From the IMG/VR virus record IMGVR_UViG_3300042554_001750: a stretch of 64,000 bases of DNA; one strand, given 5' to 3'. Below, piece by piece: positions 4,551-40,329 of the stretch; position 1 is the first letter of the stretch; each line of letters begins with the position of its first letter. A program made the position numbers and the translations under genes. The notes under the pieces are model-generated. The model saw only the letters and a list, made by a program, of their open reading frames with translations, searched no databases and had not been told where the DNA came from. This DNA is from a virus (Duplodnaviria > Caudoviricetes).

Positions 4551-4556
4551 AATATT

Positions 4557-4632: not shown

Positions 4633-4647
4633 ATAATAAATAATGTT

Positions 4648-4797: not shown

Positions 4798-4798
4798 T

Positions 4799-4872
4799 GC
4801 GGGTATGATGTAAAGGTAACCTGAATCCTTGCCAAGGATTATTTGCGAGTTCGATTCTCGCTACCCGCTCCA
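4799..4872 (+). tRNA. tRNA-Gly(GCC)
   Basis: Loop TTGCCAA, GTTCGATTC, CCA. Confidence 0.92.
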
Positions 4873-17729: not shown

Positions 17730-18110
17730 TTAACCTCTACGCATGGTGCTAATGTCCTTGGCTTGCTGGTCACTGAAGATTGGAACAGCGTTGGACTTGT
17801 GCATGGTACCGATACCGATAATCTTATCTCCGGTATATTGTTGTGTTTGTTTGACATTAACGGCCCCAGTAACCCAAGAATTAAGACTGGGGATTTTTTT
17901 AGTATCAGCAGTCTTGGTTACTGTACCGATCTTTTTAACTGTAAATGATTTGGGTGCAGGCTTGCTCATAGATTTCCATTTAGCCTGATTTTCTTCCCAA
18001 AGAGCCTGAAGGTCACGGGCCTTACGGGCCTCCTCAGCATTACGGAACTTTTGTTTACCCTTACGCTTGCCTGACATAGACAACCATGGGCCTTCAAGAT
18101 GCATGGTCAT
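17730..18110 (-). CDS. Hypothetical basic protein
   Basis: 126 aa; GIGTMHKSNAVP motif; early promoter upstream. Confidence 0.65.
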   Translation of the reverse strand: MTMHLEGPWLSMSGKRKGKQKFRNAEEARKARDLQALWEENQAKWKSMSKPAPKSFTVKKIGTVTKTADTKKIPSLNSWVTGAVNVKQTQQYTGDKIIGIGTMHKSNAVPIFSDQQAKDISTMRRG

Positions 18111-18139
18111 AACATTACCATATTAGTTATTACATGCAT

Positions 18140-18168
18140 AGTATAGCAGAAAAGGCAATTATTGTCAA
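18140..18168 (-). promoter_or_regulatory. Early promoter
   Basis: TTGACAATAATT, 17-bp spacer, TATACT on the minus strand. Confidence 0.75.
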
Positions 18169-18170
18169 AT

Positions 18171-18608
18171 TCACTTCTTTAAAATATCCCATATCTTTTC
18201 TTTTTCAATAATCTCTTTTTCTAGTTCCATGTACTGTTTGCGTAAGTTACGCAATTCTTCCCATTTTTCTTCTAGTTGTTCGTTGGGGCGTAGTATCGCT
18301 AATTTTTCTTCAATCTTTTCTAAACTGTCAATAAGACTCTTGCCTTTGATTTTAATATCACCTTCAAAGTTTGCGTCACCGTTGACTTGTAGTGTATTTG
18401 ACAGATTGCCCCAATCTGCGATGGTGATAGTATCTGTGCCGGTTCCCGTTGATATAGTATTCCAATTATAACCCGGCGATGTATAAATTGGGGCTGTGTT
18501 ACTTGTTTGTGTTATAGTGTATATACCACTAGATCCACTGCCTAATGTATTAGTTCCACTGCCCAAAGTGATGGTCATGTCGTTAAAAGTATATGGATCA
18601 TTATTCAT
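18171..18608 (-). CDS. Hypothetical protein (Thr/Gly-rich N-terminus, coiled C-terminus)
   Basis: 145-aa ORF. Confidence 0.6.
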   Translation of the reverse strand: MNNDPYTFNDMTITLGSGTNTLGSGSSGIYTITQTSNTAPIYTSPGYNWNTISTGTGTDTITIADWGNLSNTLQVNGDANFEGDIKIKGKSLIDSLEKIEEKLAILRPNEQLEEKWEELRNLRKQYMELEKEIIEKEKIWDILKK

Positions 18609-18796
18609 TTGTGTGCCTTTTTGATATACAATGTTCCATCTGAAGCTACTTCAAATTCAACATCATCTCCCTCTTGGAGCTTTAATGCGCGGAGTAGTTC
18701 TTCAGGAATAGGCAACAATAAATCACCAGTGGCGTCATCCTCTTGAATGATTACTTCATAACGAATTTGTGTTTTGGCAGGATCTTTTTTAGACAT
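18605..18796 (-). CDS. AbrB/MazE/SpoVT-like small protein
   Basis: LLLPIPEELLRALKLQEGDDVEFEV. Confidence 0.65.
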   Translation of the reverse strand: MSKKDPAKTQIRYEVIIQEDDATGDLLLPIPEELLRALKLQEGDDVEFEVASDGTLYIKKAHK

Positions 18797-18844
18797 ACTG
18801 CATTCTATATAATTTTCGTTGAATATTATATATTATTGGGTAAA

Positions 18845-19405
18845 TTACCATGCGCGGCATGACCAATATCTTGCCTTCCAGCGTGGACCTGGATTATCGC
18901 AATTATGTCTAGCACGGAAGCTCTTGCGGCGTGCGGGATTTGATTTCTTTATTCGCATCTTTTTGTCACCAAAGTTCACTTTGACAACATTTCCCTTTGG
19001 ACCGCGAACATAAACTTTAGATTTCTTAACATCACCTGCCATTGGCTTGCCAAGTTGAACTTCTCTTCCCTGATACTTAGCCTCATCAATATCATTTACA
19101 GTATGCCAAAATTCTTTTATCCATTCTTCATCACCGTACTTGTCGCAGAATTCTTCTAATTCCATGCGCTCTGCATCATCATGCATTGCTTGTTTGGTCA
19201 TACCTTCGGTTAATTGCTTTTTAGCGTCAATTATTAAACTAAGTGCAGTTTCATCTATTTTTACAATTACGCCATCTTCTGTGATATCTTCAATGTATGT
19301 TTCTACTAATGTATCACCTAAATCAATTCCAACTATATCACCAACCTGTGGTTCGTGGTCAACTGAAATATCTTCTAATTTGTTAAGAAAGTCTCTGAAG
19401 TTCAT
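18845..19405 (-). CDS. Hypothetical late protein with basic RARHxC...YWSC tail
   Basis: AATAAATA box upstream; RRKSFRARHNCDNPGPRWKARYWSC. Confidence 0.65.
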   Translation of the reverse strand: MNFRDFLNKLEDISVDHEPQVGDIVGIDLGDTLVETYIEDITEDGVIVKIDETALSLIIDAKKQLTEGMTKQAMHDDAERMELEEFCDKYGDEEWIKEFWHTVNDIDEAKYQGREVQLGKPMAGDVKKSKVYVRGPKGNVVKVNFGDKKMRIKKSNPARRKSFRARHNCDNPGPRWKARYWSCRAW

Positions 19406-19422
19406 AATTATTTCCTGATCTT

Positions 19423-19995
19423 TTATTTATTCAAAAATGGACGATAAATCTTTTCTAATTGTTTTATGGTTTCTGTAGCAGAGTTAGGATCCTCATGCTC
19501 ATCTTCATGCTTGACTGCGATGCCACCGGCGTTTCGCCAAGCTTGCAAATATTTGCCAAAGTCATCTACTAAGACTTGAGGTTGTCCGTCCTTCATAGCA
19601 TACTTGTACTTTTCACCAGTAAAAATAGCGTTACCTGAAGTTCCTGGATTGTATTGATCTAGCCAATCTTTTTTAGCTTCAATACTAGCATCGTTATATG
19701 GTCCTCTTAGAGGAGCACTTAAAACAGTAAATGGTATTTTATTTTGATGTAGCCAAGCTACAACTTTATTACCACCTTTTAAGGGCTTCAAATCTCTAAA
19801 AAAGTCATACACTTCTTTTGCTGAACTGTTTGCTAAAATCTCAATTTCTTTTTCTTTGTCATTGATTGCCTTCCAATGACCGACTTTATTTCTTTCAGCC
19901 CAGGCACCAAAGAAGTCAGCTTGCACCCCATCCATATCTAGATATAGATGTGGCATTTGTTTTAAATCTTCAAAAATAAAATCTTTAGCTCTCAT
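19423..19995 (-). CDS. HAD-family 5'(3')-deoxyribonucleotidase-like protein
   Basis: YLDMDGVQADF motif I, LSAP motif II, LVDD motif IV. Confidence 0.8.
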   Translation of the reverse strand: MRAKDFIFEDLKQMPHLYLDMDGVQADFFGAWAERNKVGHWKAINDKEKEIEILANSSAKEVYDFFRDLKPLKGGNKVVAWLHQNKIPFTVLSAPLRGPYNDASIEAKKDWLDQYNPGTSGNAIFTGEKYKYAMKDGQPQVLVDDFGKYLQAWRNAGGIAVKHEDEHEDPNSATETIKQLEKIYRPFLNK

Positions 19996-20399
19996 TAGTC
20001 ATCTCCGGCAGCATCTTTAACTTCTTGTGCTGTTGCCTTTCGTCCTTTAGGACCGCCTATAGGTTTGTTAGCTTCTTCGGCTGCCCGTTTAGCTGCCTCT
20101 TCTTCTTTGCGCTTTTTAAACGGATCTTGGTTAATATCCTGTTCGGCAATCATACGCTCTTTTTCAATAGTTTTACCACGCAATTGCATGACTGTTTCAA
20201 CTTTTTGATTGAGGCGTATCAAATCATTATCTAACATTCTGATGCGGTCAATCAATGCTATCAGGGTGCCATTGGCTTGACCAATCACGGGTTTAATTTC
20301 TGTAGTTACCCACTTCCAAACAAAGTATACGAAATACCCCATACCGACTGCTGCGATAATGGGGAATCCGTATTTGTTTACTAAATCAACTAGATCCAT
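19995..20399 (-). CDS. Membrane protein, GFPI-motif (YvrJ/holin-like) with coiled coil
   Basis: KYGFPIIAAVGMGYFVYFVW TM helix then heptads. Confidence 0.55.
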   Translation of the reverse strand: MDLVDLVNKYGFPIIAAVGMGYFVYFVWKWVTTEIKPVIGQANGTLIALIDRIRMLDNDLIRLNQKVETVMQLRGKTIEKERMIAEQDINQDPFKKRKEEEAAKRAAEEANKPIGGPKGRKATAQEVKDAAGDD

Positions 20400-20403
20400 A
20401 ATT

Positions 20404-20922
20404 TTATAGTATAAATGGTAACCACATCCATAGTGCCTGGCTTACGAATACAGACCCGACTGCTCCGACTACTACACTAATATAAAACATTGGCATACTA
20501 ACAGCAAGAATACTAGCAGTTAGCAGAACAATGGCGATCTGTAACACACTGCCGCCCCATGTAAACCAGGGTGACTTCTTGCGGGCTACCTCACGCTCGG
20601 CTTCGAGAGCCTTGGCCTTTTCCATAATTTCTTTCTTGTCTGCTTCCATACGGGCAGCTTCGGCTTCAAACTTGGCTTTGTTTTCAGGAATCTTGGCCTC
20701 CATTGCGGATGTTTCATATAGAACTTGACGCACATTTTTTGCTTGATACCAAGCCCACTGGTTATTAGCAGCAATTGTATTGTTCATAATTTTACTGCTA
20801 TTTTGACCACCTATCATAGTATTGATAGCCAATAATGCTGCAAAGAACACAATAACAAAGCCTGCTTTGTCTTTAATTTTAGCTTCTTTTTCACTTCTTG
20901 AAAGTGGTTTTACCTCTGACAT
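20404..20922 (-). CDS. DUF4337-like membrane protein
   Basis: TM - A.NQWAWYQAKNVR - coiled coil - two TM (LQIAIVL..SIL). Confidence 0.7.
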   Translation of the reverse strand: MSEVKPLSRSEKEAKIKDKAGFVIVFFAALLAINTMIGGQNSSKIMNNTIAANNQWAWYQAKNVRQVLYETSAMEAKIPENKAKFEAEAARMEADKKEIMEKAKALEAEREVARKKSPWFTWGGSVLQIAIVLLTASILAVSMPMFYISVVVGAVGSVFVSQALWMWLPFIL

Positions 20923-20946
20923 TTTATTTCCTTTATGGTTATTATG

Positions 20947-21228
20947 TTAATCTTTTCTTTGGTCTGCTTGTTCTGCTCTTGACAAACGGTCATAATCAGG
21001 CTGTAATCCCAATGCATGACTGACTTTAACATCAATTCTTTGTAATTGATTAGTCATGGTATCCACCCGAGCGTCAAGGCCCTTAATAATTCCGCCCATG
21101 CCGTTAACACTAGAAGTTACCCCGGCAAGTATAAATTTTAGTGTTAAAAACACGAAATATCCAGCCCCTAAAGCAGCAGCGATAGGGAATCCCAATTCAG
21201 CGATAAGTTTTAGCATGTCCATACGCAT
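20947..21228 (-). CDS. Membrane protein, GFPI-motif (YvrJ/holin-like), paralog of 19995-20399
   Basis: ELGFPIAAALGAGYFVFL. Confidence 0.55.
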   Translation of the reverse strand: MRMDMLKLIAELGFPIAAALGAGYFVFLTLKFILAGVTSSVNGMGGIIKGLDARVDTMTNQLQRIDVKVSHALGLQPDYDRLSRAEQADQRKD

Positions 21229-21274
21229 ATTTATCTAAAAAATAATATATGCGTACACATATACTAAATACCAT

Positions 21275-21646
21275 ATGGACGGTATTGTCATAATGCTATT
21301 GCTCCAAATAAAGCATTGGTATGCTGATTTTTGGATTCAAACATATCATCAAACGGTTTATAAAGGCGTTTATGGGAATCCTGTGGGTATCAGTCATACA
21401 TTAGAACATACCATTGGAACAGTTTTAGCATTGCTGATAGCTAACAGTTTTGTTCCTATATCAGTCTCCGTGATTATCTTACTATCGCTTTTGGATTTTA
21501 TAATCCACTATCATGTTGATTTTGTCAAAGTTAAATATGGCATTAAAGACAATAAAACCACAAGATACTGGCGAGAGTTTGGTCTAGACCAACTTGCACA
21601 CCAGCTTACATACATTTTAATAACCTACATTATAATTAGTCGTTGA
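21275..21646 (+). CDS. DUF3307-like membrane protein
   Basis: KHWYADFWIQ, HTLEH, HYHVDFVK, GLDQLAHQ. Confidence 0.75.
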   Translation: MDGIVIMLLLQIKHWYADFWIQTYHQTVYKGVYGNPVGISHTLEHTIGTVLALLIANSFVPISVSVIILLSLLDFIIHYHVDFVKVKYGIKDNKTTRYWREFGLDQLAHQLTYILITYIIISR

Positions 21647-21664
21647 GATTACTCCCCAGTTTTA

Positions 21665-21672
21665 TATAAATA
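21665..21672 (+). promoter_or_regulatory. T4-type late promoter box upstream of the curli-like operon
   Basis: Exact TATAAATA 35 bp before the csgF-like ATG. Confidence 0.65.
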
Positions 21673-21706
21673 CAAGTATACTAAAAACTAAATTTGGGAG
21701 TAATTT

Positions 21707-22177
21707 ATGAAAAGAATCCTATTAGGATTGTTGTTCATGCCGGTTGTAGCATCTGCACAACTTGTACAACAGTTTAAAAATCCGGCTTTCAATAGCCAGG
21801 GTTGGAGCAGCCATGCACTTACGATTGATAGTATAGAAAAAAGTCGCAAGGATGCTATAGCTGCCGAGAAAAAGGCTGAGTTAGCAGCATTAGAAGCAGC
21901 AGCACAAAATACACCTTTAGCTAGATTTATGAATTTGTTCAGCAGCCAAGTGTATGCGCAACTTGCTACTCAATTAAGTAATAATTTATTTCAGAACAAA
22001 TGTGCTGGAGTAGCCGGGCCTATTCCGGGTTGTGTCAATCCAACTACCGGACAGTTTCAATTAGACGGCAATACGGTTACATGGGTTAAAACAGATAAAG
22101 AAGTAACATTAACTGTTGTTGATGCCAAAGGTACAATCACAATTGTTAAAGTACCTATAGCAAGTTTTGGATTCTAA
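21707..22177 (+). CDS. csgF: Curli assembly protein CsgF-like
   Basis: Signal peptide then LVQQFKNPAF, similar to the CsgF N-terminal NPxF segment; directly upstream of csgG. Confidence 0.7.
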   Translation: MKRILLGLLFMPVVASAQLVQQFKNPAFNSQGWSSHALTIDSIEKSRKDAIAAEKKAELAALEAAAQNTPLARFMNLFSSQVYAQLATQLSNNLFQNKCAGVAGPIPGCVNPTTGQFQLDGNTVTWVKTDKEVTLTVVDAKGTITIVKVPIASFGF

Positions 22178-22178
22178 T

Positions 22179-22991
22179 ATGAAATATACTAAAATATTAA
22201 TTGCGTGTTTATCAGCCTTAGCATTTACTGGATGTAGTACTATAAGACCTATGCAGGATTTAGAAAGAACTACGGAACCTAGAATTGCTGAAAATATTAA
22301 TGAAAGTTTTAAGGATGTTGCAGCGCCTGCAGGCCCACCAGTTGTAGTGGCTGTGTATGGCTTCAAGGATCTGACAGGACAGCGTAAGCCTAGCACTACA
22401 CTAAGCAGTTTCAGCAGTGCAGTTACACAAGGCGCTGAAAGTTATCTAATTAAGAGTTTACAGGAAGTTGGCAACCGTCAGTGGTTTACTGTAGTTGAGC
22501 GTGTTGGTCTAGACAATCTGTTAAAAGAGCGTCAAATGATCAAACAAACCCGTGAAATCTATGATGGTGCCAATGCTAAGATGTTACCTCCTCTTGCACT
22601 AGCCGGAGTTATACTAGAAGGTGGAATCATTGATTACAATAGTCATACATTAACAGGCGGTACTGGTGCTCGTTGGTTAGGTATTGGACCATATACACAG
22701 TATACCCAAGATTTAGTTGTTATCAGTATGCGTTTAGTAAGTGTTCAAACCGGTGAAGTACTAACCACCGTAACCGTTGAAAGAGACCTACTAAGCACCG
22801 GAGAAGGTATAACAGCTTTAAGATTTTTCAATCAAGCAACTAAAGCTTTTGAATTTGACAGTAGCCAAACATACAACGAACCCGGCAACTATGCATTGCG
22901 TAGTGCCATAGAAACTGGGGTTGTTGAATTGATTCGCAAAGGAGAACGTCAGGGCCTTTGGAAGTACAAAACACCTGACACTAAAAAATAA
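22179..22991 (+). CDS. csgG: Curli secretion channel CsgG (lipoprotein)
   Basis: Lipobox FTGC; VAVYGFKDLTGQRKP, SSAVTQG, WFTVVERVGLDNLLKERQMI, LEGGIIDY. Confidence 0.9.
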   Translation: MKYTKILIACLSALAFTGCSTIRPMQDLERTTEPRIAENINESFKDVAAPAGPPVVVAVYGFKDLTGQRKPSTTLSSFSSAVTQGAESYLIKSLQEVGNRQWFTVVERVGLDNLLKERQMIKQTREIYDGANAKMLPPLALAGVILEGGIIDYNSHTLTGGTGARWLGIGPYTQYTQDLVVISMRLVSVQTGEVLTTVTVERDLLSTGEGITALRFFNQATKAFEFDSSQTYNEPGNYALRSAIETGVVELIRKGERQGLWKYKTPDTKK

Positions 22992-23015
22992 TAATAACAA
23001 GGGAGTATTCCTCAT

Positions 23016-23810
23016 ATGAAATTTAATAAAATATTTGCAGCAGCAATATTATCTTTAAGTGGGTTATCTGCATTTGCGCAAACTGCCGTGACACCACCCA
23101 CTGCACCCACTGTTCCCAACACAGTAACAGTTAGTCCCAATGCTACCACAGCATTGGGTAACAGCACAACCAACCGCATCTTTATTGATCAAAGTGGTTC
23201 CAATCCTGATGTGAACATGACACAAGATGGCAGTGGCAACAAGCAAGGAAGCGCACAAAGACCCATTTACTTGCGTGGTGCTGATCAGGTGATCATCACT
23301 CGTCAGATTGGCAACAACAATGAGATAGACTTAGAAGTTTCCAATCCCACAACAGGAGCCAGTGTGGGTGCCAAAGTTACCATTCAACAGATTGGCAACA
23401 GCAACAAAGTTGATGCAGCTTGCGGATATGGTAACAGCAGCACTGGCACAGCTCTAACAGGTTGCAAGAATGCTGACTTGAACTGGAAGTTCACTGGCAA
23501 CAGCAATGAGTTTCAGTTCCGTGCCAGTGGTGACGACATTCGCAGTGCTGTCACAGTAGCAGGCAATGGCAACAAGTTCTGGATTGACGCTGTGGGCAAC
23601 AAGCACAGTCAGACTCTAATGGTAACTGGTGACAACAATGAATTCAATCTAAGTCAAACCAGTACTGGCAGTGCTGGCAGCAGCATCTGGATTGATCAGA
23701 CTGGCACTGGCACCAAGTTCTTTGTGGCTCAAAGTGGAACTGTTGACAACGTTCTGAACATCAAGAGTGTTGCAACAGGAGGAACCTTTAATATAGTTCA
23801 GAAGAACTAA
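23016..23810 (+). CDS. Curlin-repeat secreted protein (CsgA/CsgB-like)
   Basis: Signal peptide; repeated xIxQxGxxN units (IDQSGSN, TRQIGNNN, IQQIGNSN, IDQTGTG). Confidence 0.7.
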   Translation: MKFNKIFAAAILSLSGLSAFAQTAVTPPTAPTVPNTVTVSPNATTALGNSTTNRIFIDQSGSNPDVNMTQDGSGNKQGSAQRPIYLRGADQVIITRQIGNNNEIDLEVSNPTTGASVGAKVTIQQIGNSNKVDAACGYGNSSTGTALTGCKNADLNWKFTGNSNEFQFRASGDDIRSAVTVAGNGNKFWIDAVGNKHSQTLMVTGDNNEFNLSQTSTGSAGSSIWIDQTGTGTKFFVAQSGTVDNVLNIKSVATGGTFNIVQKN

Positions 23811-23818
23811 GGATCATT

Positions 23819-25069
23819 GTGAAGCGACTACTTGTGGCCTTGTGTGGGCTAGTACTAAGCACAAGTGTACTAGCCAATGTGGGTTCTGTAGCAGAACTCA
23901 CGGGCACAGCCGTGATCAAGCGAGGCAAAACCACTGTACCAGTGACAAATGGCACAGTGGTTGAAATGAATGACCGAGTAGAAACTAAAAACGGTAAACT
24001 GAAAATTGTTTTCCGTGATAAAACCACTGTTAGTGTCACTGAAAGTAGTGCATTAGACATAGATGAGTTTGTGTATGATCCGAAAAATGCTGGTGCAGGC
24101 AAACTAGGTATAAAAGCTGCGGCGGGCACAGTACGATATGTCAGTGGTGCTATTGCTGGCGCTAATCCCAACGCTGTAAACATCAAAACACCCACAGCAG
24201 CCATCGCAGTTCGTGGTACAGATTTTGTCATGAGTGTGAATGAGATCGGTGGTAGCATGATTATCTTGATGCCACAGTGTGAGGAGCATGGTATAAATGT
24301 TCGTGGCATGATATGTGGTAGTGGCCGGATAGATGTTGAAAGTGGCGGAACAGTGGTGAACATGTCCAGACCCTATCAAGCCACACTAGTAGAAAAAACA
24401 GGCTCACCACCTAGTCCGCCCATTACAGTAAATCTATTCAATACACCAATTAGTAATAACTTGCAAATAGCTCCACCCAGAACCATGAGTGGTGGCAGTG
24501 TGGTAGCAGCAGCCCGGGCAGCAGTAGCACAAACTAGCAGTGGTGTTCGCAGTGCTGCAAGATCAAGTAGTGGCAGTGGTAGTTCAAGTGGCAGTAGTGG
24601 TTCAAGTGGCGGCGGAGCAGAACCTGCAGCAGCAAGCGATGCACCTCCAGCAGAGGCTGTTGTAGCCAGCGAATCAAATAAACCTGAAACGGTCGCCAGT
24701 AAAAGCGAAGAAACAACGACAGCAGTAGAAGCACCCAGTAATATCGTGTCTCTTGAACCAGTGCTTGAGCTAGTTACTAAAACAACAGAATCTGCCAAAG
24801 ATGAAAAAGCTGAACCCGCACCAACTGTGACAACCACTGAAACTAAAAGCGATGAAGATGCCAATCTCAGAAAGATTTATAGTGGAGCTTCACAATCAGG
24901 ATGGGGCTACGAAAGTTTGAGTAAAACCAGTCGTAACTATGCCAACATTGTGTTGCCTATCAATACTGCCATACAAATTTACATAGTTCAAGATAACATG
25001 GTTGCTGCTAAAAACTTTAGCAGTGGTCGCCCACAAGGGCAAATAGTAATCAATCAGACATTCAGATGA
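23819..25069 (+). CDS. FecR-domain exported protein with Ser/Ala/Glu/Thr linker
   Basis: Signal peptide; DRVET..IVFRDKT..IKTPTAAIAVRGTDF. Confidence 0.8.
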   Translation: MKRLLVALCGLVLSTSVLANVGSVAELTGTAVIKRGKTTVPVTNGTVVEMNDRVETKNGKLKIVFRDKTTVSVTESSALDIDEFVYDPKNAGAGKLGIKAAAGTVRYVSGAIAGANPNAVNIKTPTAAIAVRGTDFVMSVNEIGGSMIILMPQCEEHGINVRGMICGSGRIDVESGGTVVNMSRPYQATLVEKTGSPPSPPITVNLFNTPISNNLQIAPPRTMSGGSVVAAARAAVAQTSSGVRSAARSSSGSGSSSGSSGSSGGGAEPAAASDAPPAEAVVASESNKPETVASKSEETTTAVEAPSNIVSLEPVLELVTKTTESAKDEKAEPAPTVTTTETKSDEDANLRKIYSGASQSGWGYESLSKTSRNYANIVLPINTAIQIYIVQDNMVAAKNFSSGRPQGQIVINQTFR

Positions 25070-26889
25070 AACTCTTACTAGCATTCATATTACTGTTGTT
25101 TTCAAATTTCAGTCAGGCAGCTTTTACTGACATAAAGTTTGGCCGCTATCAAGTAGCCGACAGTCAGTGGAATGTGAGTGCCTGCTTGAATACAACCACT
25201 TGCCAGATATACAGCAAGAATCCAGGAACTATGTACAAGATACCCTGGACCAGTGGCCAGTGGAGTTGGCAAACTGGGCAGTATGTTCAGTTCAGCCTAA
25301 GTGGTAACGCCAGCTTTCCCTATGAAGGCAAAGTGTATAATAGTAACGGCACCTTAGCAGGTACTATAGGCATTGGCAAGATAGTAAACATGGGCCCTGA
25401 CTATTTCTTCTTTGTGGGCAGTGACAATAACACAGGTCAATTGTTCAGCGGTAGTAGTGGCATGAGTAACACCAGTGGTGTTAGTTGGACAGGAACATTG
25501 AATCCTACAACAGCACAAGCAGATGCTTATGCTGATGCAAGTTATAGCACAGTGCCTTTAGCGGCAGGACAAACTGCTACAGTAACTCCCAGTTCATCTA
25601 ATACACCTGCACCCAACCCCAGACCAGTTTGGCCTGTGATCAATCGTGCCGCCAATCAAGTTCAGTTTGGCAGTGGTCGCACTGGTGGCTGGAGTACATA
25701 CTGGCAAGATTGTTGTGGCAGTGGAGGCGGAACATGGGGGTCAATAAATTATGGTGGCAATGGAAACAGTTCAGCACAATTTTGGGCTACAACATATATG
25801 CGTTGGCCAGGAGCAGACAATGGGGTAAGCAGAACCATATGGTTTAGAACGGGTCTGGATGACGCCCATCAATTACGAATAAATGGTCAACTGGTCACTA
25901 GTGGTGGTTGCTGTAGTTGGGCATATGGGTCATATACTGCCAAGCCTGGCGAAATTGTAAAACTTGAGTTCTACAGTAATAACTCTGGCGGCAATGACTG
26001 GGTATTTCAGGTTGCCTGGGATCCGCAAGGTGATGGTAGTTATGAATTACTAGACAGCAACACAGTCGCACTACAAAGTGCCACAGATGGTGGTGGCGGT
26101 TTCTGGTACGGCAGCGGTATAACCACAGATCAAACTAATATCATGAACAGTGCCAGAACACGCACAGGAGCTGTAGCACTGGGCAATCGCATTGACCTAG
26201 AACAAAAAATAGGCACTAGTGGCAGTGTAGTTACAATAGAACAGACTGGTAACTATAATTTGATTCAGGGGTTAGGTGGCGGCAATGCCATCATTGATGG
26301 TCAGAACAACACACTAAACATCAAGCAAGGTGACACATTGGGTCGTAACTTGATTGAATTGGGTGTATACGGAAATACCAATACTGTTACAGTAAATCAA
26401 GCCCGTAATACTACCACTGGGTTGCAAGATGGCAGCGAAAGCGGCGGACATTATGCTGGCTTAGGCGTCAATGGTAATAGTAACACAGTCACAATTAGAC
26501 AGGGCAATGATGGTGGTATCAGTAGCGGACATTTCGGTTTAATGTACATCAAGGGTGATACCAACAACATGTCACTTACACAAGCCAACAACAATGACAA
26601 GAGAGCATTTATTAGTGTTGATGGTAACAATAATAATAGCATATTATCGCAATCAGGTTTGGGCAACCACTATATTGACTTAATGATGACTGGCAACGGT
26701 CACACAGCCAACATCACACAGTCAGGAAATGCCACACATAGAGCCACAATCAACTTGACCAATGCCGGCGGTTCAAGCATTCTAAACTTGATTCAGCAAG
26801 GTAGTACAGCACAACAATACAGTATTGTGCAGCAATGTGCTAACTTACAGGGCTGTAGTGTTACTGTAACACAAGGCAATGGACCGTAA
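25066..26889 (+). CDS. Secreted adhesin-like protein: N-terminal Trp/Gly-rich and PA14-like domains, C-terminal curlin repeats
   Basis: Signal peptide; FRTGLDDAHQLRINGQLV (PA14-like); about ten IxQxG/GNxN repeats in the C-terminal 230 aa. Confidence 0.65.
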   Translation: MKLLLAFILLLFSNFSQAAFTDIKFGRYQVADSQWNVSACLNTTTCQIYSKNPGTMYKIPWTSGQWSWQTGQYVQFSLSGNASFPYEGKVYNSNGTLAGTIGIGKIVNMGPDYFFFVGSDNNTGQLFSGSSGMSNTSGVSWTGTLNPTTAQADAYADASYSTVPLAAGQTATVTPSSSNTPAPNPRPVWPVINRAANQVQFGSGRTGGWSTYWQDCCGSGGGTWGSINYGGNGNSSAQFWATTYMRWPGADNGVSRTIWFRTGLDDAHQLRINGQLVTSGGCCSWAYGSYTAKPGEIVKLEFYSNNSGGNDWVFQVAWDPQGDGSYELLDSNTVALQSATDGGGGFWYGSGITTDQTNIMNSARTRTGAVALGNRIDLEQKIGTSGSVVTIEQTGNYNLIQGLGGGNAIIDGQNNTLNIKQGDTLGRNLIELGVYGNTNTVTVNQARNTTTGLQDGSESGGHYAGLGVNGNSNTVTIRQGNDGGISSGHFGLMYIKGDTNNMSLTQANNNDKRAFISVDGNNNNSILSQSGLGNHYIDLMMTGNGHTANITQSGNATHRATINLTNAGGSSILNLIQQGSTAQQYSIVQQCANLQGCSVTVTQGNGP

Positions 26890-26902
26890 TAAATAAAAGA
26901 CT

Positions 26903-28960
26903 ATGAAAAAAATCTTATTAAATCCCTGGACAGCACTTGCCACCCTCGTAATTGTGTTATTCGTCCGTATGTTAGATCCTACATTTGTAGAAAGTGTAAG
27001 GTTACGCTATTTTGATACACTAATTACTAGCCAACCGGATAAACCTGTCAGTGTTAGTGTTGTCAACATAGATGAAGCTAGTTTAGACAAGTATGGACAG
27101 TTTCCATTTCCAAGAGATGTATATGCTCAAATAATACAGGACATTTATAAACGAAACGCAGGATTAGTTGTATTCAATGTATTGATGCCTGAAAAGGACA
27201 GATTTAACAAAGATACCGTTTTAGCTCAAACATTAGAAAAAAATCCAGTTGTATTACCTGCATTAGGTAGCACTAAGAGTAAAAATACTGATGTTGGTAG
27301 CGCAGTTCAAATTGTTGGAAAAAATGTAGAAGGCAGTCTAGTACAGTACCCTGGATACATTACATCAGTTAATGAAATATCTGATAAGGCTGCAGGAGTT
27401 GGTATCGTTAATACTTTTCCAGAAGTTGACGGTGTTGTTCGTCGCATGCCATTAGTTATTATTGCAGGAGAAAATGTTCACCCTGCACTATCATTAGAAG
27501 CATTGAGAGTTATAGCACAAGATACAAAAATTCAAGTTAAAATTTCAGAGTTGGGCGTTGAAGCATTGCGTATTCCAAATTTTGCAAAAATCAAAACAGA
27601 CAATTTAAGTCGTATATGGATAGATTATAGTGGTAAACCCGAGCAGTATAGTTTAGTTGATATGCCAAAAGATTTTGAAGGCAAAGTTGTTGTGGTTGGT
27701 TTAAGTGCAGCTGGATTAGTAAATCCTGTGCCAACAAGTCGCGGAGAAATATGGCCACAAGAACTACAAGCCAGTGTAATGGGAACCATCTTAAATGATA
27801 CAGTAATCAGTCGTCCTAATTATGCCAATGAGTTAGAAATACTTGCAATATTAGTTGCAGGTATATTATTGATATTCTTAATGAGGTGGACATATGTTGG
27901 TATTGCGGCAACAGTTGTTACGGTTGGTGGTGTTATTGTTGGTAGCATCTATGCTTACAGTAACTTTTTATTCTTATTTGATAGTACTGCCTTCGCAGTT
28001 GGCGTTGGATTGGTCGCTCTGCACGCCTACATGGTCAAGTTCGTATCAGAATTCTTACAGAAACAGCAAATAAGAAAACAGTTCCAAAGTTATCTAAGCC
28101 CTGACTTAGTTGCTAAGTTAATCAAAGATCCTAGTTTATTAAAACTAGGCGGTGAGGAAAAAGAACTGTCTATTATGTTTACTGATGTTCGCGGATTTAC
28201 ATCAATCTCTGAACATTATGGTCGTGATGTACAAGGACTTACTAGCATCATGAACCGTTATATGACTGCCATGACTAGAACTATTCTAGAAACAGGTGGC
28301 ACATTAGACAAGTACATCGGTGACGCACAAATGGCATTCTGGAATGCACCATTAGATGAAACTAAGCACTGCAAAGATGCTGTTAAAGCCGCGTTAGAAA
28401 TGTTAGGAAGTTTAGATGGGTTTAATGCAGGTATTAAAGAAGAAGGGGTTCCTCCATTCGGTATGGGCATTGGTATTAACACTGGTGTTGTTGTGGTTGG
28501 CAATATGGGTAGTGAGCAACGCTTTGACTATACTTGCCTTGGCGACGCTGTTAATTTGGCTAGTCGTTTAGAAGGTCAATCTAAGAACTATGGCGTACTA
28601 ATTGTTCTTGGTCCTGTGACTGCTGAACGGTTAGGTGATGAATACTTTACATTAGAATTAGATTGTATTGCTGTTAAGGGTAAAAAAGAAGGTGTTAATA
28701 TCTATACAGTATTCTACAATCCTTCAACAAATGTTGAAATGGTAAAATGGAAAACAGCAAAAGAGTTACATGAATTAATGTTAGCTTATTATCGCAAACA
28801 ACAGTGGGATAAGGCAATAGAATTGATACACAGCCTTAAGGGAGAATTTAGTGGCGGCATGGATAATTATTATGATCTATGGCTTGAAAGAGTTGAAGAA
28901 ATGCGCAATGCTAATTTACCAACTGATTGGGACGGAGTGTTCCGGGCTACAAGTAAATAA
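26903..28960 (+). CDS. CHASE2-domain class III adenylate cyclase
   Basis: N-terminal TM, CHASE2 (VNIDEASL..GQFPFPR, DGVVRRMPL), three TMs, FTDVRGFT, DKYIGDA, DYTCLGDAVNLASRLE. Confidence 0.92.
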   Translation: MKKILLNPWTALATLVIVLFVRMLDPTFVESVRLRYFDTLITSQPDKPVSVSVVNIDEASLDKYGQFPFPRDVYAQIIQDIYKRNAGLVVFNVLMPEKDRFNKDTVLAQTLEKNPVVLPALGSTKSKNTDVGSAVQIVGKNVEGSLVQYPGYITSVNEISDKAAGVGIVNTFPEVDGVVRRMPLVIIAGENVHPALSLEALRVIAQDTKIQVKISELGVEALRIPNFAKIKTDNLSRIWIDYSGKPEQYSLVDMPKDFEGKVVVVGLSAAGLVNPVPTSRGEIWPQELQASVMGTILNDTVISRPNYANELEILAILVAGILLIFLMRWTYVGIAATVVTVGGVIVGSIYAYSNFLFLFDSTAFAVGVGLVALHAYMVKFVSEFLQKQQIRKQFQSYLSPDLVAKLIKDPSLLKLGGEEKELSIMFTDVRGFTSISEHYGRDVQGLTSIMNRYMTAMTRTILETGGTLDKYIGDAQMAFWNAPLDETKHCKDAVKAALEMLGSLDGFNAGIKEEGVPPFGMGIGINTGVVVVGNMGSEQRFDYTCLGDAVNLASRLEGQSKNYGVLIVLGPVTAERLGDEYFTLELDCIAVKGKKEGVNIYTVFYNPSTNVEMVKWKTAKELHELMLAYYRKQQWDKAIELIHSLKGEFSGGMDNYYDLWLERVEEMRNANLPTDWDGVFRATSK

Positions 28961-28963
28961 CCT

Positions 28964-28992
28964 TTGACTCATTGGTAAAAATATGTTATACT
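28964..28992 (+). promoter_or_regulatory. sigma70-type promoter
   Basis: TTGACT-17-TATACT. Confidence 0.65.
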
Positions 28993-29011
28993 ATAAAGAA
29001 TGGATTAATTT

Positions 29012-29770
29012 ATGCTACGATCATTATACAAAATATTTTTTATTGGTATACTACTTTCCTTATTTCCTAGCTGGGGCAGAGCCGATCCTCTGCCCAACAT
29101 CACCGCGCAAGCCTGGTTAATTGCTGATGTAAATGGTAATATTTTACAAGGTTCTAACACAACTGATGTCCGTAGTATAGCAAGTATTACAAAATTAATG
29201 ACTGTGATGGTTGTTATTGATGCACAACAAGACCTCAATGAAGTTGTCACCAAGAAGTTATTCAATAAAAATCTAACTAGAATGGATCTTATTGATTTAG
29301 CAATCGTTAAATCAGATAATGAAGCTTCAAAAATATTATGTGACAAGTACCCGGGTGGGTACAAAAGTTGCGTTCAGGCTATGAATGATAAGGCGCGTGG
29401 ATTGCAAATGTACAATACCAGCTTTACTGATCCAACTGGAAGAATGCATGACAATGTAAGCACTGCTCAAGACTTAATAAAATTAGTTATAGCCTCTAGC
29501 TCTTATCAAGTAATTGTTGATGCTAGCAAAAAGGATCATTTAAGTTACTCAACAGGAAAAAGAAATTCTATAGTATTCAACAATACTAATAATTTAGTCG
29601 GAAAAGGTTACGATTTTATTGTCACTAAAACCGGCTTCATAAACAAAGCAGGTGGCTGCATTGTGTTTATGATAGACACTGTTCGTGGAGTAAGAACTGT
29701 GATTGTATTGGGAAGTAAAAATACTAGAACTAGAATCCCCGAAGCTTTCTTGTTATCTACATTATACTGA
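29012..29770 (+). CDS. Peptidase S11 D-alanyl-D-alanine endo/carboxypeptidase (PbpG/DacA-like)
   Basis: Signal peptide; SxxK (ASITK), SxN (KSDN), KTG. Confidence 0.88.
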   Translation: MLRSLYKIFFIGILLSLFPSWGRADPLPNITAQAWLIADVNGNILQGSNTTDVRSIASITKLMTVMVVIDAQQDLNEVVTKKLFNKNLTRMDLIDLAIVKSDNEASKILCDKYPGGYKSCVQAMNDKARGLQMYNTSFTDPTGRMHDNVSTAQDLIKLVIASSSYQVIVDASKKDHLSYSTGKRNSIVFNNTNNLVGKGYDFIVTKTGFINKAGGCIVFMIDTVRGVRTVIVLGSKNTRTRIPEAFLLSTLY

Positions 29771-30064
29771 CTTTAAAGAATCCAAATACTTTTTGTATTT
29801 TAAATTACCTTCAGGTATGTAGTCAATATTCATAACAGGGCTGTAATCAGTTTCAACTAGATTGACAATTTCATCCCCGAACTTAATGGTCAAGTATGAT
29901 AATGTTTTATCACTATTTTCTTGACCTTCACTGAATGCCAACAATAAATGATGTAGCCACTTGATTTTTCTTTTACAATATTTTTTAACTTGGGAATCTG
30001 ATAAGATATCAGTAAAGTTATTTGACTCGCGGTAAAATACTAGATATTTCATTATTTCTTCCAA
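29762..30064 (-). CDS. Hypothetical protein
   Basis: 100-aa ORF in a coupled minus-strand run. Confidence 0.55.
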   Translation of the reverse strand: MEEIMKYLVFYRESNNFTDILSDSQVKKYCKRKIKWLHHLLLAFSEGQENSDKTLSYLTIKFGDEIVNLVETDYSPVMNIDYIPEGNLKYKKYLDSLKSV

Positions 30065-30255
30065 ATTGTAAAAGCGATGTAGTCTCTTTCTGATTCAAAA
30101 AAGAATATCCAGCTATTATACATTTCTTCATGCGGATCTTCCATGTACCTCCACTCACTAGTACAATTACGATCACACCATTCAACAACGGGTCGTAGTT
30201 CGCCGTATGGTAATTTTATCTCAACTTTATACGCTGTCGGTATACTGATGGACAT
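30052..30255 (-). CDS. Hypothetical protein
   Basis: 67-aa ORF. Confidence 0.55.
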   Translation of the reverse strand: MSISIPTAYKVEIKLPYGELRPVVEWCDRNCTSEWRYMEDPHEEMYNSWIFFFESERDYIAFTIWKK

Positions 30256-30757
30256 TGACCCCGCCTTGTTTTAAAAAGGTTACTCCTGAGTCATCGCGGT
30301 ATTGCTCACGGTAGTATAGTGTATTGATTCCTGATTGGTATATCAGTTTAGCGCACTCAATACATGGCGCATGTGTACAAAACATAGTTGCCCCGTCACT
30401 GCTTTCAGTGGACCTGGACACTTTAGCGATGGAGTTACTTTCGGCGTGAAGTACCTCTGGTTTGGTTCGTAAGCGATAGCGTCCCTCTACCTCGTTCCCG
30501 TTGGCATCTACATATGTGCCTTCATGGGGCCAACGTTCCTCAATTTCATCAGGGTTTAGCCAACCACCTGCGTCACCGCTCATCCATTCCCGATCTTCAC
30601 AATTGTTTTCCCAACCAGTGGGCATACCATTGTAGCCTGTGCCAATGATTTGATTACCTTTAACGATTACTGCACCTACTTGTAATCGTTTCGCATAGCT
30701 TAACTTACTCGTCAAGTTTGCTATACTCATAAAGTAATCAATAAATTTCTTTTTCAC
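30227..30757 (-). CDS. dCMP deaminase
   Basis: VGAVIV..GYNG, HAE, PCIECAK. Confidence 0.9.
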   Translation of the reverse strand: MKKKFIDYFMSIANLTSKLSYAKRLQVGAVIVKGNQIIGTGYNGMPTGWENNCEDREWMSGDAGGWLNPDEIEERWPHEGTYVDANGNEVEGRYRLRTKPEVLHAESNSIAKVSRSTESSDGATMFCTHAPCIECAKLIYQSGINTLYYREQYRDDSGVTFLKQGGVNVHQYTDSV

Positions 30758-30993
30758 TTAATATAACCTAGTTTTTCAATATGAAGTTTGGCAGTTGAAT
30801 CACTTAATGCTTTTAGAAAAAAATTGTTAAATCCAAATCTTTCGCAGAATGCTTCTCCGAATGTCTTACCTTTTAATTTATCAAAAATAAATTCCTCACA
30901 GAATATTTCATAGTCAACAGTACTTATTGTTTTTTCACTGTTGGTTGTTAAACTTTCTAATGCACCCAACGAATACATAAAACTGTCGTTCAT
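30754..30993 (-). CDS. Hypothetical protein
   Basis: Likely ATG at 30993. Confidence 0.5.
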   Translation of the reverse strand: MNDSFMYSLGALESLTTNSEKTISTVDYEIFCEEFIFDKLKGKTFGEAFCERFGFNNFFLKALSDSTAKLHIEKLGYIK

Positions 30994-30994
30994 A

Positions 30995-31534
30995 TTAATC
31001 CCAAAGATTCCTATAATACTTACCAAACAATTCAAGACCTTCTTGAATTCGTTCTTCGTGTAATTGGTGACCAACATGATCATACCAATGTTGATTGGGA
31101 TTTTTATCTACCATGCGAAATGTATCTTCCATCTTACCTGAAATGGGATTAGGATATTGTTTATCAGACTTTACAAAATCATACTCACTTTTTCCATGCC
31201 GATATTTATCTTCGTATGATTCTAGTGCTATCTGTTGGAAACTCCAAATCATCTTGTCAAGAACTTCGTCCCAAAGTTTACACTTTTCATCAAATGCTTC
31301 TTTGTGTGTTTCTTTGTAAAAGTCAAAACTGTCTTGATCAACATAATCTTCTCCCCCTATATCAGCAATAAAATCACCAGGAACACCGTGTTTTGTTGCC
31401 TTCAATTGTAAAAGTGCAGGAAGGATAATTAATGCAAGTGTGTAATCTAAACTGAATGTGTCGTGTCTTTCAATATCAATATCAAATCTTTGTCCAATTT
31501 CTGATTTGAGATACTTACCAATCTTTACCTTCAT
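30995..31534 (-). CDS. Conserved phage hypothetical protein
   Basis: DTFSLDYTLALII ... W..VLDKMIWSF ... IQEGLELFGKYY. Confidence 0.65.
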   Translation of the reverse strand: MKVKIGKYLKSEIGQRFDIDIERHDTFSLDYTLALIILPALLQLKATKHGVPGDFIADIGGEDYVDQDSFDFYKETHKEAFDEKCKLWDEVLDKMIWSFQQIALESYEDKYRHGKSEYDFVKSDKQYPNPISGKMEDTFRMVDKNPNQHWYDHVGHQLHEERIQEGLELFGKYYRNLWD

Positions 31535-31872
31535 TGTATTTTACCATTAATAATTTTAATAATTTTATTATCCGGCGCCGCAAGTAAAGCAAAGTTCACA
31601 TTTTTATTTTTAAATAGATTTTCTGCAACTTCGTCTAATGATGATCCTTGCGCCATAAAATCATTTGATTTAATGTCGTATGTATAAAAAACATTGTTAT
31701 GAGTTTCTACTTTTAACATTCTAATATCAGGTGTCACAACTTTATTTTCTTCTAGGTTTATGCCTTCCTTTTCTGCTAACTTTATAAGTTGACGATATAC
31801 TTTGAATGCAAAATAATTATAGCCCAAAAAACAGCCTATAACAAATCCTATGAGGTAATTTAGAAGTTCCAT
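31531..31872 (-). CDS. Hypothetical protein with N-terminal TM
   Basis: 113-aa ORF; late-like box upstream. Confidence 0.55.
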   Translation of the reverse strand: MELLNYLIGFVIGCFLGYNYFAFKVYRQLIKLAEKEGINLEENKVVTPDIRMLKVETHNNVFYTYDIKSNDFMAQGSSLDEVAENLFKNKNVNFALLAAPDNKIIKIINGKIQ

Positions 31873-31881
31873 GATGTGTAT

Positions 31882-32160
31882 TTATTTGATTTTAATGTTA
31901 GAATAGACTTTCAATTTCTCAAACTTTTTATTTTTGGCAGTGTTAATACCATCTTGTGAAACACCTACCTTTTGTTTCACAAGAAGTTGAATCATAGCCT
32001 GAAGATCACCGATTTCTTTTTCAAGTCGTTGAATGTTTGTTACATCAATACCATCCATCATTTGATCGGGTCCAAAACGAAAACACTTACTGACCTCTAC
32101 GATAACTTCGGCGCATTCTTCTTGTAGAATGGTTAATATTTCTTTAGTTTGTTCATTCAT
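31882..32160 (-). CDS. MazG-like nucleotide pyrophosphohydrolase
   Basis: LQEECAEVI..SK ... EKEIGDL. Confidence 0.7.
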   Translation of the reverse strand: MNEQTKEILTILQEECAEVIVEVSKCFRFGPDQMMDGIDVTNIQRLEKEIGDLQAMIQLLVKQKVGVSQDGINTAKNKKFEKLKVYSNIKIK

Positions 32161-38199: not shown

Positions 38200-40329
38200 T
38201 TAGATTCCTTTAACTTGATCAACCATATTAATGTAGTCAACTACATCATCAATTTTAGCATAATAACTAGAAATATGTTGTAGCATTGGGTAACGACTCA
38301 TAACCTTTTCAACCTTAACCTTGTATTGTTCAATAAGTTTGTTAGGATCAACATTGTTGACAACGATACCAAACAGTTTGAACAATTGTTCCAAATAGTG
38401 TCGCTTGTGGTCATCAACTGCCTCTACATCCTTAAACTCAGCAAACAACTTGTAGTACGGGCTGTTTTGATTTAGATTACCGTTAATATACTTGAAATTG
38501 TTTTTAATGTCAATGCTGGCTTTGACCAAACCTAGTACATTACTGGTATCAGTAGCCAACAATTTTTCACGGACATGATCAATCAGATTGACCCAATTCT
38601 TTTGCTTACGAACCAATTCAATGTCACTCTTGCGAACACCATGAACGGTTTGACTAAAGATTTCTGCCCGTTGAAGATTCTCAACAAACATAGCCATGTC
38701 ACTCATGGGCACTCCAACTGGCTCCCAGTGATTCATTTCTACATAGTAGAATGTCTTGTTGGCATCGTAGTCACTAGCAGTACCGCCATTAGCCCAAACA
38801 TACTTGCGTTGATAACGGCTACGCTGGCGTTCAACAAATTGTAGGATACTTGCCTTACCCCAGTTGCCACTAACATCACGATCCTTCTCAAGCAATTGAG
38901 TAGCATACATGGTGTTGATTGGGCTGTGCAGGTCACGCAAGAAACTACCAACACTCATAGTTTTGGTTTTGTCAAATGGCTCAATCACAATGACCGACTC
39001 ACTATAAGTATCCATCTTTTTATTACGCCAGTGATACTTAGCCCGTTCCAACGCACCACGCTTGGTATCAGTAATAACAAAGTGAACATTCATAGACGGT
39101 TGAATGCGCCAAGCATGAACATATTTCTTGGTAACATCATCCAATATGCTGTCGGGCTTAAAATTATTACACTTGTCACTACTACGCTCCTTATGGAAGC
39201 CACGGATAGTGATGTTGTACTTTTCCTGAAGGTCAGTAACCTTCAACATAAAGGGCTTGATAAGATTGTATGATGTAGCATCAGCAAGCGGGAATTTAGA
39301 ATCAGTCACATACTTAATAGTAGCCGCCTTGAACAAGGCTTCACTATGGCGCTTGCTAAGATAATCTGCCCGTTGCCAAAAATTATCAATCTTGTCGGCT
39401 TCAGTAGCAATATGGATAGCCAGTTGGTTGTTTAATGCCTCAAGTTTATTTTTGATGGACTGAATTGTAGAAGGAATATAACTCAGACCTTCACGACTTG
39501 CTTGGAAGTCAAGTTCACCGATATTAAATTCCATAACAAGACCGCAACCAAGAAGACCGCGTAACTCGCCTAGTGTACTATCAGCCGCCGGCACATCAAT
39601 GGGATACTGAATGTTACCCATGATTGCTACACTAGATGAACGGTCACTACCAAGACTATGTACGCCTGGGATAATGTCACGATCCTTGTATTCGGGGTCA
39701 AGGAAAGTAAAGTCCTTAGAGCCGTGAATTACAGGGCGCAGTTTGAAATACTTGTAGACATACCTTGTCTCAGTACGGAACTTATCAAAGTCCCAGCGGT
39801 CGTTTACACTAAACTTGACCTCAACACCATTGGGTTCGGTAGTATCATTCTCAGTCATCAATGCGATACTAGGCACACCTTGATCATTGATAAAGGCTGT
39901 GTAGATACCCTTGCGACCGTTTTGAATAGCGGTTACAGTAAAATTATCTGTATAGCTAAACGGAGACTTACTACCAAGACCAAGAGCACCAATAAAATCG
40001 TTAGAATCGGTTTTAGTAGATTCAAAATAGGTAGTATAGATGTTTGTAACTTGTGCATGGCTAAGTCCTGTACCATAGTCACGAATACTGAACCATGGCT
40101 CTAGTTGATTCGGAAGATGAATATCAAAAGGCAAGTCTGGTTTGCCTGCGGCAACATGACTATCCACAGCATTGCAGGACAATTCACGGATGATAGCGCG
40201 GATCTTGTTAGCATACAGACCCGAACTCAGAATGTTAAAAGCCTTAGCTGAATTGCGAATACGGAACTCGCCAATCTGGCCTACATTACTAAGGATGGCC
40301 TCATTTTGAGGCGTGTTATTCAAAATCAT
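38200..40329 (-). CDS. rIIA: rIIA-like protein (GHKL ATPase N-terminus)
   Basis: LYANKIRAIIRELSCNAVDSH, IRDYGTG, GALGLGSKSPFSY. Confidence 0.88.
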   Translation of the reverse strand: MILNNTPQNEAILSNVGQIGEFRIRNSAKAFNILSSGLYANKIRAIIRELSCNAVDSHVAAGKPDLPFDIHLPNQLEPWFSIRDYGTGLSHAQVTNIYTTYFESTKTDSNDFIGALGLGSKSPFSYTDNFTVTAIQNGRKGIYTAFINDQGVPSIALMTENDTTEPNGVEVKFSVNDRWDFDKFRTETRYVYKYFKLRPVIHGSKDFTFLDPEYKDRDIIPGVHSLGSDRSSSVAIMGNIQYPIDVPAADSTLGELRGLLGCGLVMEFNIGELDFQASREGLSYIPSTIQSIKNKLEALNNQLAIHIATEADKIDNFWQRADYLSKRHSEALFKAATIKYVTDSKFPLADATSYNLIKPFMLKVTDLQEKYNITIRGFHKERSSDKCNNFKPDSILDDVTKKYVHAWRIQPSMNVHFVITDTKRGALERAKYHWRNKKMDTYSESVIVIEPFDKTKTMSVGSFLRDLHSPINTMYATQLLEKDRDVSGNWGKASILQFVERQRSRYQRKYVWANGGTASDYDANKTFYYVEMNHWEPVGVPMSDMAMFVENLQRAEIFSQTVHGVRKSDIELVRKQKNWVNLIDHVREKLLATDTSNVLGLVKASIDIKNNFKYINGNLNQNSPYYKLFAEFKDVEAVDDHKRHYLEQLFKLFGIVVNNVDPNKLIEQYKVKVEKVMSRYPMLQHISSYYAKIDDVVDYINMVDQVKGI

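Follow-up and report, generated by a model that had tools for sequence, protein, structure and literature searches.

In a 64,000-nucleotide stretch of viral DNA (the window), drawn from the 108-kb IMG/VR viral record IMGVR_UViG_3300042554_001750 with a CheckV completeness of 31%, we identified a curli-type secretion cassette of six genes at positions 21707-28960 on the + strand, in the order CsgF, CsgG, curlin 1, FecR-domain protein, 607-residue lectin-curlin fusion and CHASE2 adenylate cyclase. We read the cassette, with a probability of about 0.5, as a phage type VIII secretion system (T8SS) module that would export lectin-tipped curlin fibres late, together with a FecR-CHASE2 pair that would sense through cyclic adenosine monophosphate (cAMP). 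The phage curli-FecR-cyclase cluster is already published and the basic picture in print is unchanged by this instance; its most useful new feature is the putative sugar-binding head of the second curlin, which judging from the sequences of sister phages is interchangeable, being either PA14 or discoidin.

A pore, two curlins and a putative sugar-binding head

The six genes are packed and co-directional, just as an earlier sequence-only reading of this DNA had described them, with intergenic distances of 1, 24, 8, −4 and 13 nt. Its assignments of CsgF, CsgG, curlin, FecR and CHASE2 cyclase agree with Pfam hidden Markov model searches, and each of CsgF, CsgG, FecR and the cyclase (over its full length) has a phage family in PHROGs. 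The signal peptides or membrane spans that it had read on all six products are present as well, since every product starts with a signal-like hydrophobic segment, the cyclase having instead an N-terminal span and further spans at residues 311-381. A scan of viral contigs returned 109 relatives of the window CsgG, and the six-gene order is retained in ~80 loci, among which CsgG divergence reaches down to 43% identity.

The CsgF-like protein (21707..22177, +; Pfam CsgF 1.2e-8, phrog_35372 2.4e-33) has a signal peptide followed straight away by QQFKNPAF, a QFxNPxF motif at the mature N-terminus that aligns with FQFRNPNF of Escherichia coli K-12, and it is predicted from this alignment to have the N-terminal motif that inserts into the CsgG channel. 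Comparison of CsgF with solved structures by phmmer gave nothing meaningful, no solved CsgF being matched. The outer-membrane lipoprotein channel CsgG (22179..22991, +, with an alternative start at 22167; Pfam CsgG 3.6e-46) matches the E. coli CsgG structures 3x2r and 6l7a over its full length (phmmer, 1.2e-42), and the lipobox claimed for it holds, its lipoprotein-type signal ending in FTGC. CsgE and CsgC, not seen in the earlier reading, were not found in the 108-kb record, and CsgE was not found in two complete relatives. In E. coli, CsgE is the periplasmic adaptor that delivers and gates substrates, and CsgC is a chaperone. Both are also missing from many non-enterobacterial curli systems and from every published phage module (PMC9599517).

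Curlin-repeat protein 1 (23016..23810, +; 264 residues with a signal peptide; Pfam Curlin_rpt 6.9e-5, 23.1 bits at a cut-off of 20.7) has about 9 Q-x-G-x-x-N units, whose motif columns are invariant in the homologue alignment, and is a candidate for the major fibre subunit. Curlin_rpt was found in 8 of 18 homologues of this protein and in 9 of 25 homologues of the second curlin. The second curlin itself (25066..26889, +; 607 residues with a signal peptide) gave no Pfam family above cut-off, PA14 included, and its architecture is taken from an AlphaFold2 model built on an alignment of 36 homologues, with a predicted local distance difference test (pLDDT) of 69 for the whole protein and of 83-92 within the PA14 part; a single-sequence fold of the same protein was discarded (pLDDT 39). 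The layout is a signal peptide, an N-terminal beta domain, a PA14 fold at residues 205-336 and curlin repeats at residues 375-603. Residues 205-336 form a beta-sandwich whose best Foldseek match in the Protein Data Bank is the sugar-binding PA14 domain of the Marinomonas RTX (repeats-in-toxin) adhesin (E 5e-5, TM-score 0.58 by target), and the next matches are yeast flocculins and Epa adhesins (E range 5e-5 to 1e-3). From residue 375 the model has nine strand-turn-strand units with a period of ~23 residues (pLDDT 70-91), as would be expected of the repeat fold on which the earlier reading depended, and its C-terminal half shows homology to curlin 1 (hhalign 97.8%, E 1e-12). The protein, called an adhesin-curlin fusion from its letters, carries by its model a PA14 lectin fold that is predicted to be sugar-binding, joined to a curlin-homologous half. 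A pair of aspartates, D265-D266, is at least 90% conserved and stands at what we take to be the calcium/sugar-binding position of PA14 lectins.

The head varies among relatives. Within the 25 second curlins of the clade, Pfam recognises PA14 in one (1.4e-13) and F5/8 type C (discoidin) domains in the same place in 13, from sister phages; discoidin domains also occur in many of the 120 homologues listed, the lectin-curlin homologues numbering more than 1500. In the window's clade the second curlin has 460-760 residues, whereas in pelagiphage-like loci it is plain and has ~230-250. A literature search found no description of a natural lectin-curlin fusion. The first curlin repeat of the fusion (residues ~392-400) reads EQTGNYNL, near DQTGDYNL of the E. 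coli nucleator CsgB, which hints that the fusion could be a nucleating subunit, the motif being too short to weigh. In relatives the distance between FecR and the cyclase is anything from 1.2 to 7.1 kb, and as many as 6 extra open reading frames occur there, which makes it a hypervariable spot in an otherwise fixed cassette; the extra frames lie between the second curlin and the cyclase in loci L004, L043, L049 and L056.

Control region and the FecR-CHASE2 pair

The only sizeable gap within the block lies 5' of csgF. It holds a hairpin (21646..21706, +; minimum free energy −16 kcal/mol, z −3.3, 11-pair outer stem) whose 3' arm (21696-21706) covers the csgF ribosome-binding site GGGAG, and which encloses the T4 late-promoter consensus TATAAATA (21665-21672, +). 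The count of TATAAATA in the window is at chance, 7 against 6.3 expected, and the weight is carried by its position upstream of csgF and by the conservation of its TAAATA core. Of 41 distinct csgF upstream regions from related phages, 40 have TAAATA at −50 to −15, a frequency that compares with 22% for the other genes of these loci. The csgF ribosome-binding site lies in a paired stretch in 31 of 38 upstream regions, against a background of 55%. In T4, the genes e, soc and I-TevI have early read-through transcripts in which the ribosome-binding site is hidden, and late transcripts, initiated within the hairpin, in which it is exposed. Because the TAAATA-in-hairpin layout resembles that of these genes, we propose by analogy, with moderate confidence, that the cassette is expressed late and is under late translational control like that of e and soc.

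The fourth gene (23819..25069, +) encodes an exported FecR-domain protein of 416 residues (Pfam FecR 2.1e-9; phrog_37870 5.9e-60), with a cleavable-looking signal peptide, the FecR domain at residues 52-146, a low-complexity linker and a conserved C-terminal part. It has no second Pfam domain, no anti-sigma N-terminal domain and no internal membrane span, and its atlas neighbours are viral FecR clusters (0.96). Because the FecR domain stands only behind a signal peptide, without an anti-sigma domain or membrane span, the phage protein shares a domain with FecR but is no orthologue of the iron-signalling FecR. The sixth gene (26903..28960, +; Pfam CHASE2 1.3e-41, Guanylate_cyc 1.1e-19; phrog_35576 over the full length, 8.4e-234) encodes a class III adenylate cyclase, with a periplasmic CHASE2 domain (Pfam residues 14-322) between hydrophobic spans at 3-30 and 311-381 (about three spans in the latter), a catalytic domain on the cytoplasmic side and, at the C-terminus, a short helical tail. 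In alignment, its catalytic residues (Asp, Asp, Lys, Thr, Asn and Arg) match those of Pseudomonas aeruginosa CyaB (3r5g) and of a phytochrome-cyclase fusion (6fht), and the Lys-Thr pair that selects adenosine triphosphate (ATP) is as in CyaB; the active site is predicted from this alignment to be intact and adenine-specific.

The two proteins are a familiar pair in bacteria. FecR-domain/CHASE2 pairing has been described for the Burkholderia BiofilmReg operon (PMC5192318), the Sinorhizobium meliloti FecR-domain protein SMc02177 has been studied with the CHASE2 cyclases CyaD1, CyaD2 and CyaK (PMC5498481), and a FecR-domain gene lies within ~3.5 kb of 7 of the 8 CHASE2 genes in five alphaproteobacterial genomes. 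Because FecR-domain genes adjoin CHASE2 genes in bacteria, the phage "FecR" is by analogy better read as a periplasmic partner of the cyclase than as an iron regulator. No protein binding cyclic nucleotide monophosphates was found in two complete relatives, so that the cAMP receptor would be the host's.

Readings of the cassette

In the reading that we prefer, late transcripts starting from the TAAATA box before csgF would free the ribosome-binding site and the operon would be translated, CsgG and CsgF would come together in the outer membrane of the host, where they would let both curlins out in unfolded form, and the short curlin would polymerise into beta-solenoid fibres. The lectin-curlin would co-polymerise with curlin 1 or nucleate the fibres, which would in consequence display a sugar-binding head, PA14 or discoidin according to the sister phage, and infected cells or debris would stick to the glycans of neighbouring hosts ("sibling capture"), or the cell would be coated. 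The FecR-like protein and the CHASE2 cyclase would form a periplasm-sensing pair, as in bacteria, and a signal from the envelope, perhaps the load of secretion or the assembly of fibres, would lead to cAMP acting on a host receptor. The elaboration of the cargo with interchangeable heads predicted to bind sugar argues that the secreted fibre, and not the pore alone, is under selection, and the lectin head favours a fibre/adhesion reading over pore-only readings; it also offers a concrete assayable property, glycan binding. A bolder version, in which the phage makes lectin-displaying amyloid fibres with heads swapped to match host glycans, uses them late, on the dying cell, to capture neighbouring hosts for its progeny and has FecR-CHASE2 report their assembly as cAMP, is tentative and probably does not hold in all its parts. 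If true, such fibres would be nature's equivalent of engineered CsgA fusion display, and freshwater plankton would contain a phage-encoded device for the glycan-specific capture of hosts. The functional ideas of the sequence-only reading, namely a coat, aggregation, masking against superinfection, retention of progeny and coupling to cAMP, are reasonable; they match hypotheses already in print for marine phages (PMC7029224, PMC9599517), and therefore nothing here shows them to be true.

Several observations weigh against the export of lectin-tipped fibres. Export, fibres and cAMP output are predictions for every phage copy, and cells infected with the Methylophilales phage Melnitz showed no clumping (Buchholz et al., PMC9004378). 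The constriction of the window CsgG is S/S/F where E. coli has Y51/N55/F56, Phe alone being retained, and CsgE, which would deliver substrates, is absent. The 607-residue subunit, with its folded lectin and conserved cysteine pairs, must pass the narrow CsgG channel unfolded, and disulfide formation in the periplasm could block that passage. The profile similarity between curlin 1 and E. coli CsgA is weak (24% probability) and unusable. The hairpin signal at the ribosome-binding site is moderate (82% against 55%), and the counts from upstream regions are not independent trials because the compared sequences are related. Four aquatic metatranscriptome runs gave few short contigs (34-270 nt, 90-100% identity), which partly cover csgG, curlin 1, fecR and the cyclase; these fit transcription and prove nothing, being without strand or timing. 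A complex prediction of the FecR-like protein (residues 20-225) with CHASE2 (residues 25-310) scored 0.00, which carries no weight either way.

The FecR gene is flanked by the curlin genes and keeps company with those of the pore and the cyclase over ~80 phage contigs, an arrangement that could also be read as the mark of trans-envelope signalling, in which the curlins or lectin and the CsgG/CsgF pore would act as a surface sensor and FecR would relay to the CHASE2 cyclase, in a manner modelled on FecA signalling to FecR, the output being cAMP and not adhesion. The pairing of FecR with CHASE2 is general in bacteria and the FecR domain of E. coli FecR touches an outer-membrane protein (PMC5498481), both of which suit such a relay; however, contact of the phage FecR with CsgG or CHASE2 is conjectural, the score of the predicted FecR-CHASE2 complex giving no verdict, and two long curlin-repeat proteins of at least nine repeats exceed the needs of a sensor. 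Some podophage versions of the module are without the cyclase (PMC9599517), and we regard this explanation as unlikely.

A role in lysis timing was proposed for Melnitz by Buchholz et al. in 2022 (PMC9004378), where CsgG, with or without CsgF, would serve, in the manner of a secretin or pinholin, as a gated pore of the outer membrane and help to time or carry out lysis, with the curlins accessory or vestigial. CsgG lies in the outer membrane and would hence be unable to depolarise the inner membrane, and the neighbours in the window include no lysis genes. The late-promoter-like box and the hairpin over the ribosome-binding site, which suggest late expression, as well as the lack of the periplasmic gate CsgE, would suit a lysis pore, but two exported curlins have been conserved over the deep divergence of CsgG (to 43%) and elaborated with a lectin, which argues for selection on the cargo and makes a pore for lysis quite improbable. 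Less probable again is an uptake channel, suggested in PMC7029224 and PMC9599517, in which CsgG, ungated for want of CsgE, would admit larger nutrients or cofactors, with FecR and the cyclase as unrelated regulators: this leaves CsgF, the two curlins and the lectin head unexplained, and the FecR-like protein is without the anti-sigma and membrane parts of the iron-signalling FecR, so that there is little chance of its being correct.

A freshwater T4-like jumbo phage and its relatives

The remaining explanation, that the block is a bacterial fragment misassembled onto phage DNA or a very recent host capture, as a GC content of 0.43-0.46 at 22-26 kb against ~0.38 in the flanks and a + strand island flanked by − strand genes might suggest, is refuted, because in three lake samples, taken in different studies, independent contigs bridge both cassette borders (18000-23111 and 28120-32000) with zero differences, the stretch is present in 20 lake/freshwater metagenome runs from 20 studies, in relatives the cassette shares its contig (250 kb, 344 kb with terminal repeats, or 383 kb) with the T4 Gp23 capsid gene, and viral CsgGs group apart from bacterial ones. 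The T4-like setting named in the sequence-only reading is borne out by rIIA at 38200-40329 (phrog_612, 1.5e-130), an ATP-dependent DNA ligase gene and ten transfer RNA (tRNA) genes in the window, and by Gp23 on the relatives' contigs. A cyclase protein identical to that of the window is also encoded on a 339,748-bp contig. The window phage is a member of a large freshwater clade of T4-like jumbo phages, whose complete relatives measure 344-383 kb.

The synteny and CsgG phylogeny that had been put forward as checks both set the viral cassettes apart from bacterial csg loci. In a midpoint-rooted CsgG tree, with the sequences returned by a pattern scan as the bacterial sample, the viral sequences are all on one side of a 99/87 branch and the bacterial CsgGs beyond it, and the 47-sequence clade of the window (100/99) falls with the lineage of Melnitz and HTVC008M. 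Among bacterial CsgGs the nearest come from Rhizobiales (40-45% identity), at loci with a GC content of 0.56-0.66 and without FecR and cyclase. The fused cassette was sought in 34 genome-contig loci, where ~25 true bacterial loci have CsgG without FecR or cyclase; one alphaproteobacterial locus (L116) has an ordinary csgF-csgG-x-curlin-curlin operon with an unrelated dCache cyclase 3 kb off. Low-GC contigs carrying the cassette occur, together with T4 gp23, in three public metagenome-assembled genomes (MAGs) labelled Sphingobacteriales, Luteolibacter and Synechococcus (L109, L110 and L114); because the same bins hold T4 gp23, these contigs are most likely phage DNA binned into bacterial MAGs. 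A megablast search of the cassette against deposited phages gave no match, its relatives there being found at the protein level only. The phylogeny and gene content indicate that the cassette is inherited within T4-like phages, with no recent host capture.

The extent of the block was given correctly for the six genes in the sequence-only reading, which omitted a gene on either side (DUF3307 upstream and Peptidase_S11, 8e-37, downstream), the whole + strand block being 21275-29770. On the 5' side, a DUF3307 membrane protein (21275..21646, +; Pfam DUF3307 2e-7; phrog_2470 "membrane protein" 3.7e-17) is encoded directly before csgF in nearly all loci with CsgG of at least 66% identity, that is, in the clade of the window; the gene lies outside the late-promoter box and is absent from that upstream spot in the pelagiphage-like group. 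On the 3' side (28964..29770, +), a sigma-70-like promoter (28964-28992; 10 of 12 matches plus TG) precedes the gene of a signal-peptide Peptidase_S11 DD-peptidase (29012-29770; Pfam 8.2e-37). The product, a DD-carboxy/endopeptidase of 252 residues, has visible SxxK, SxN and KTG motifs. Because it adjoins the cyclase gene in loci L005 and L006 only, this is probably a separate unit, an independent peptidoglycan-remodelling gene outside the conserved cassette. Farther off, the tRNA array (2402-4872; Lys, Glu, Asp, Met, Gly, Leu, Ala, Pro, Val, Gly) is preceded by a gene for a DUF2828/Ro-like RNA-binding protein (5-1366).

Phage T8SS genes were reported, and "sibling capture" proposed, by Zaragoza-Solas et al. 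(2020), who stated freshwater SAR11 myophages to be without the module (PMC7029224). In marine myo- and podophages, a module of CsgF, CsgG, CsgA/B, FecR, CsgA/B and adenylate cyclase was described by Wittmers et al. (2022; PMC9599517), who detected it at each of the 65 GOV2.0 stations and considered import, aggregation and protection from superinfection as roles. Phage curli modules are common across aquatic viromes, and the present case takes them beyond marine SAR11/OM43 phages as a stable feature of an abundant freshwater T4-like jumbo clade.

Of the known systems, the pelagiphage T8SS module (HTVC008M, annotated by Zhao in 2013; pelagimyophage MAGs; HTVC023P-type podophages) has a gene order identical to that of the window, is likewise without CsgE, CsgC and CsgD, has attracted the same functional hypotheses, and its CsgGs group with the other viral ones. 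Its proteins are only 27-47% identical to those of the window, however, and its carriers are marine and of ~140 kb, or podophages, rather than a freshwater jumbo phage; its second curlin is short and without the lectin domains found in the window's clade, the gene upstream is a histidine kinase in podophages in place of DUF3307, and a late-box hairpin before csgF is found in the window, unlike in the pelagiphage module. Among cultured phages, the nearest relative by CsgG (44%) and by the cyclase (38%) is Melnitz (GenBank MZ577097), in which the same six genes are annotated in the same order; the Melnitz paper treated csgA/B as absent and did not discuss FecR and the cyclase (PMC9004378), whereas in the window both curlins are recognisable and one is lectin-headed.

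The curli system of E. coli and Alphaproteobacteria (csgBAC-csgDEFG) shares with the window a homologous CsgG, the CsgF N-terminal motif and curlin repeats, and the csgF-csgG-curlin order is as in the alphaproteobacterial operon L116. In comparison with it, the window has no CsgE, CsgC or CsgD, has FecR and the CHASE2 cyclase inserted and a lectin fused to a curlin, and belongs to a lytic-type phage. In the bacterial FecR/CHASE2 pairs, of BiofilmReg and S. meliloti, an exported FecR-domain protein is encoded beside a CHASE2 sensor, as in the window, and the output domain in S. meliloti is likewise a class III cyclase; the window differs in having a curlin gene between the two and in joining the pair to a T8SS. 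Finally, the PA14 adhesins, namely the ice-binding RTX adhesin of Marinomonas primoryensis and the yeast Flo and Epa proteins, share their fold with the model of residues 205-336 of the lectin-curlin but differ in the stalk, which is an RTX repeat in Marinomonas and a cell-wall stalk in yeast, and in the window a predicted curlin beta-solenoid that would be delivered through the T8SS.

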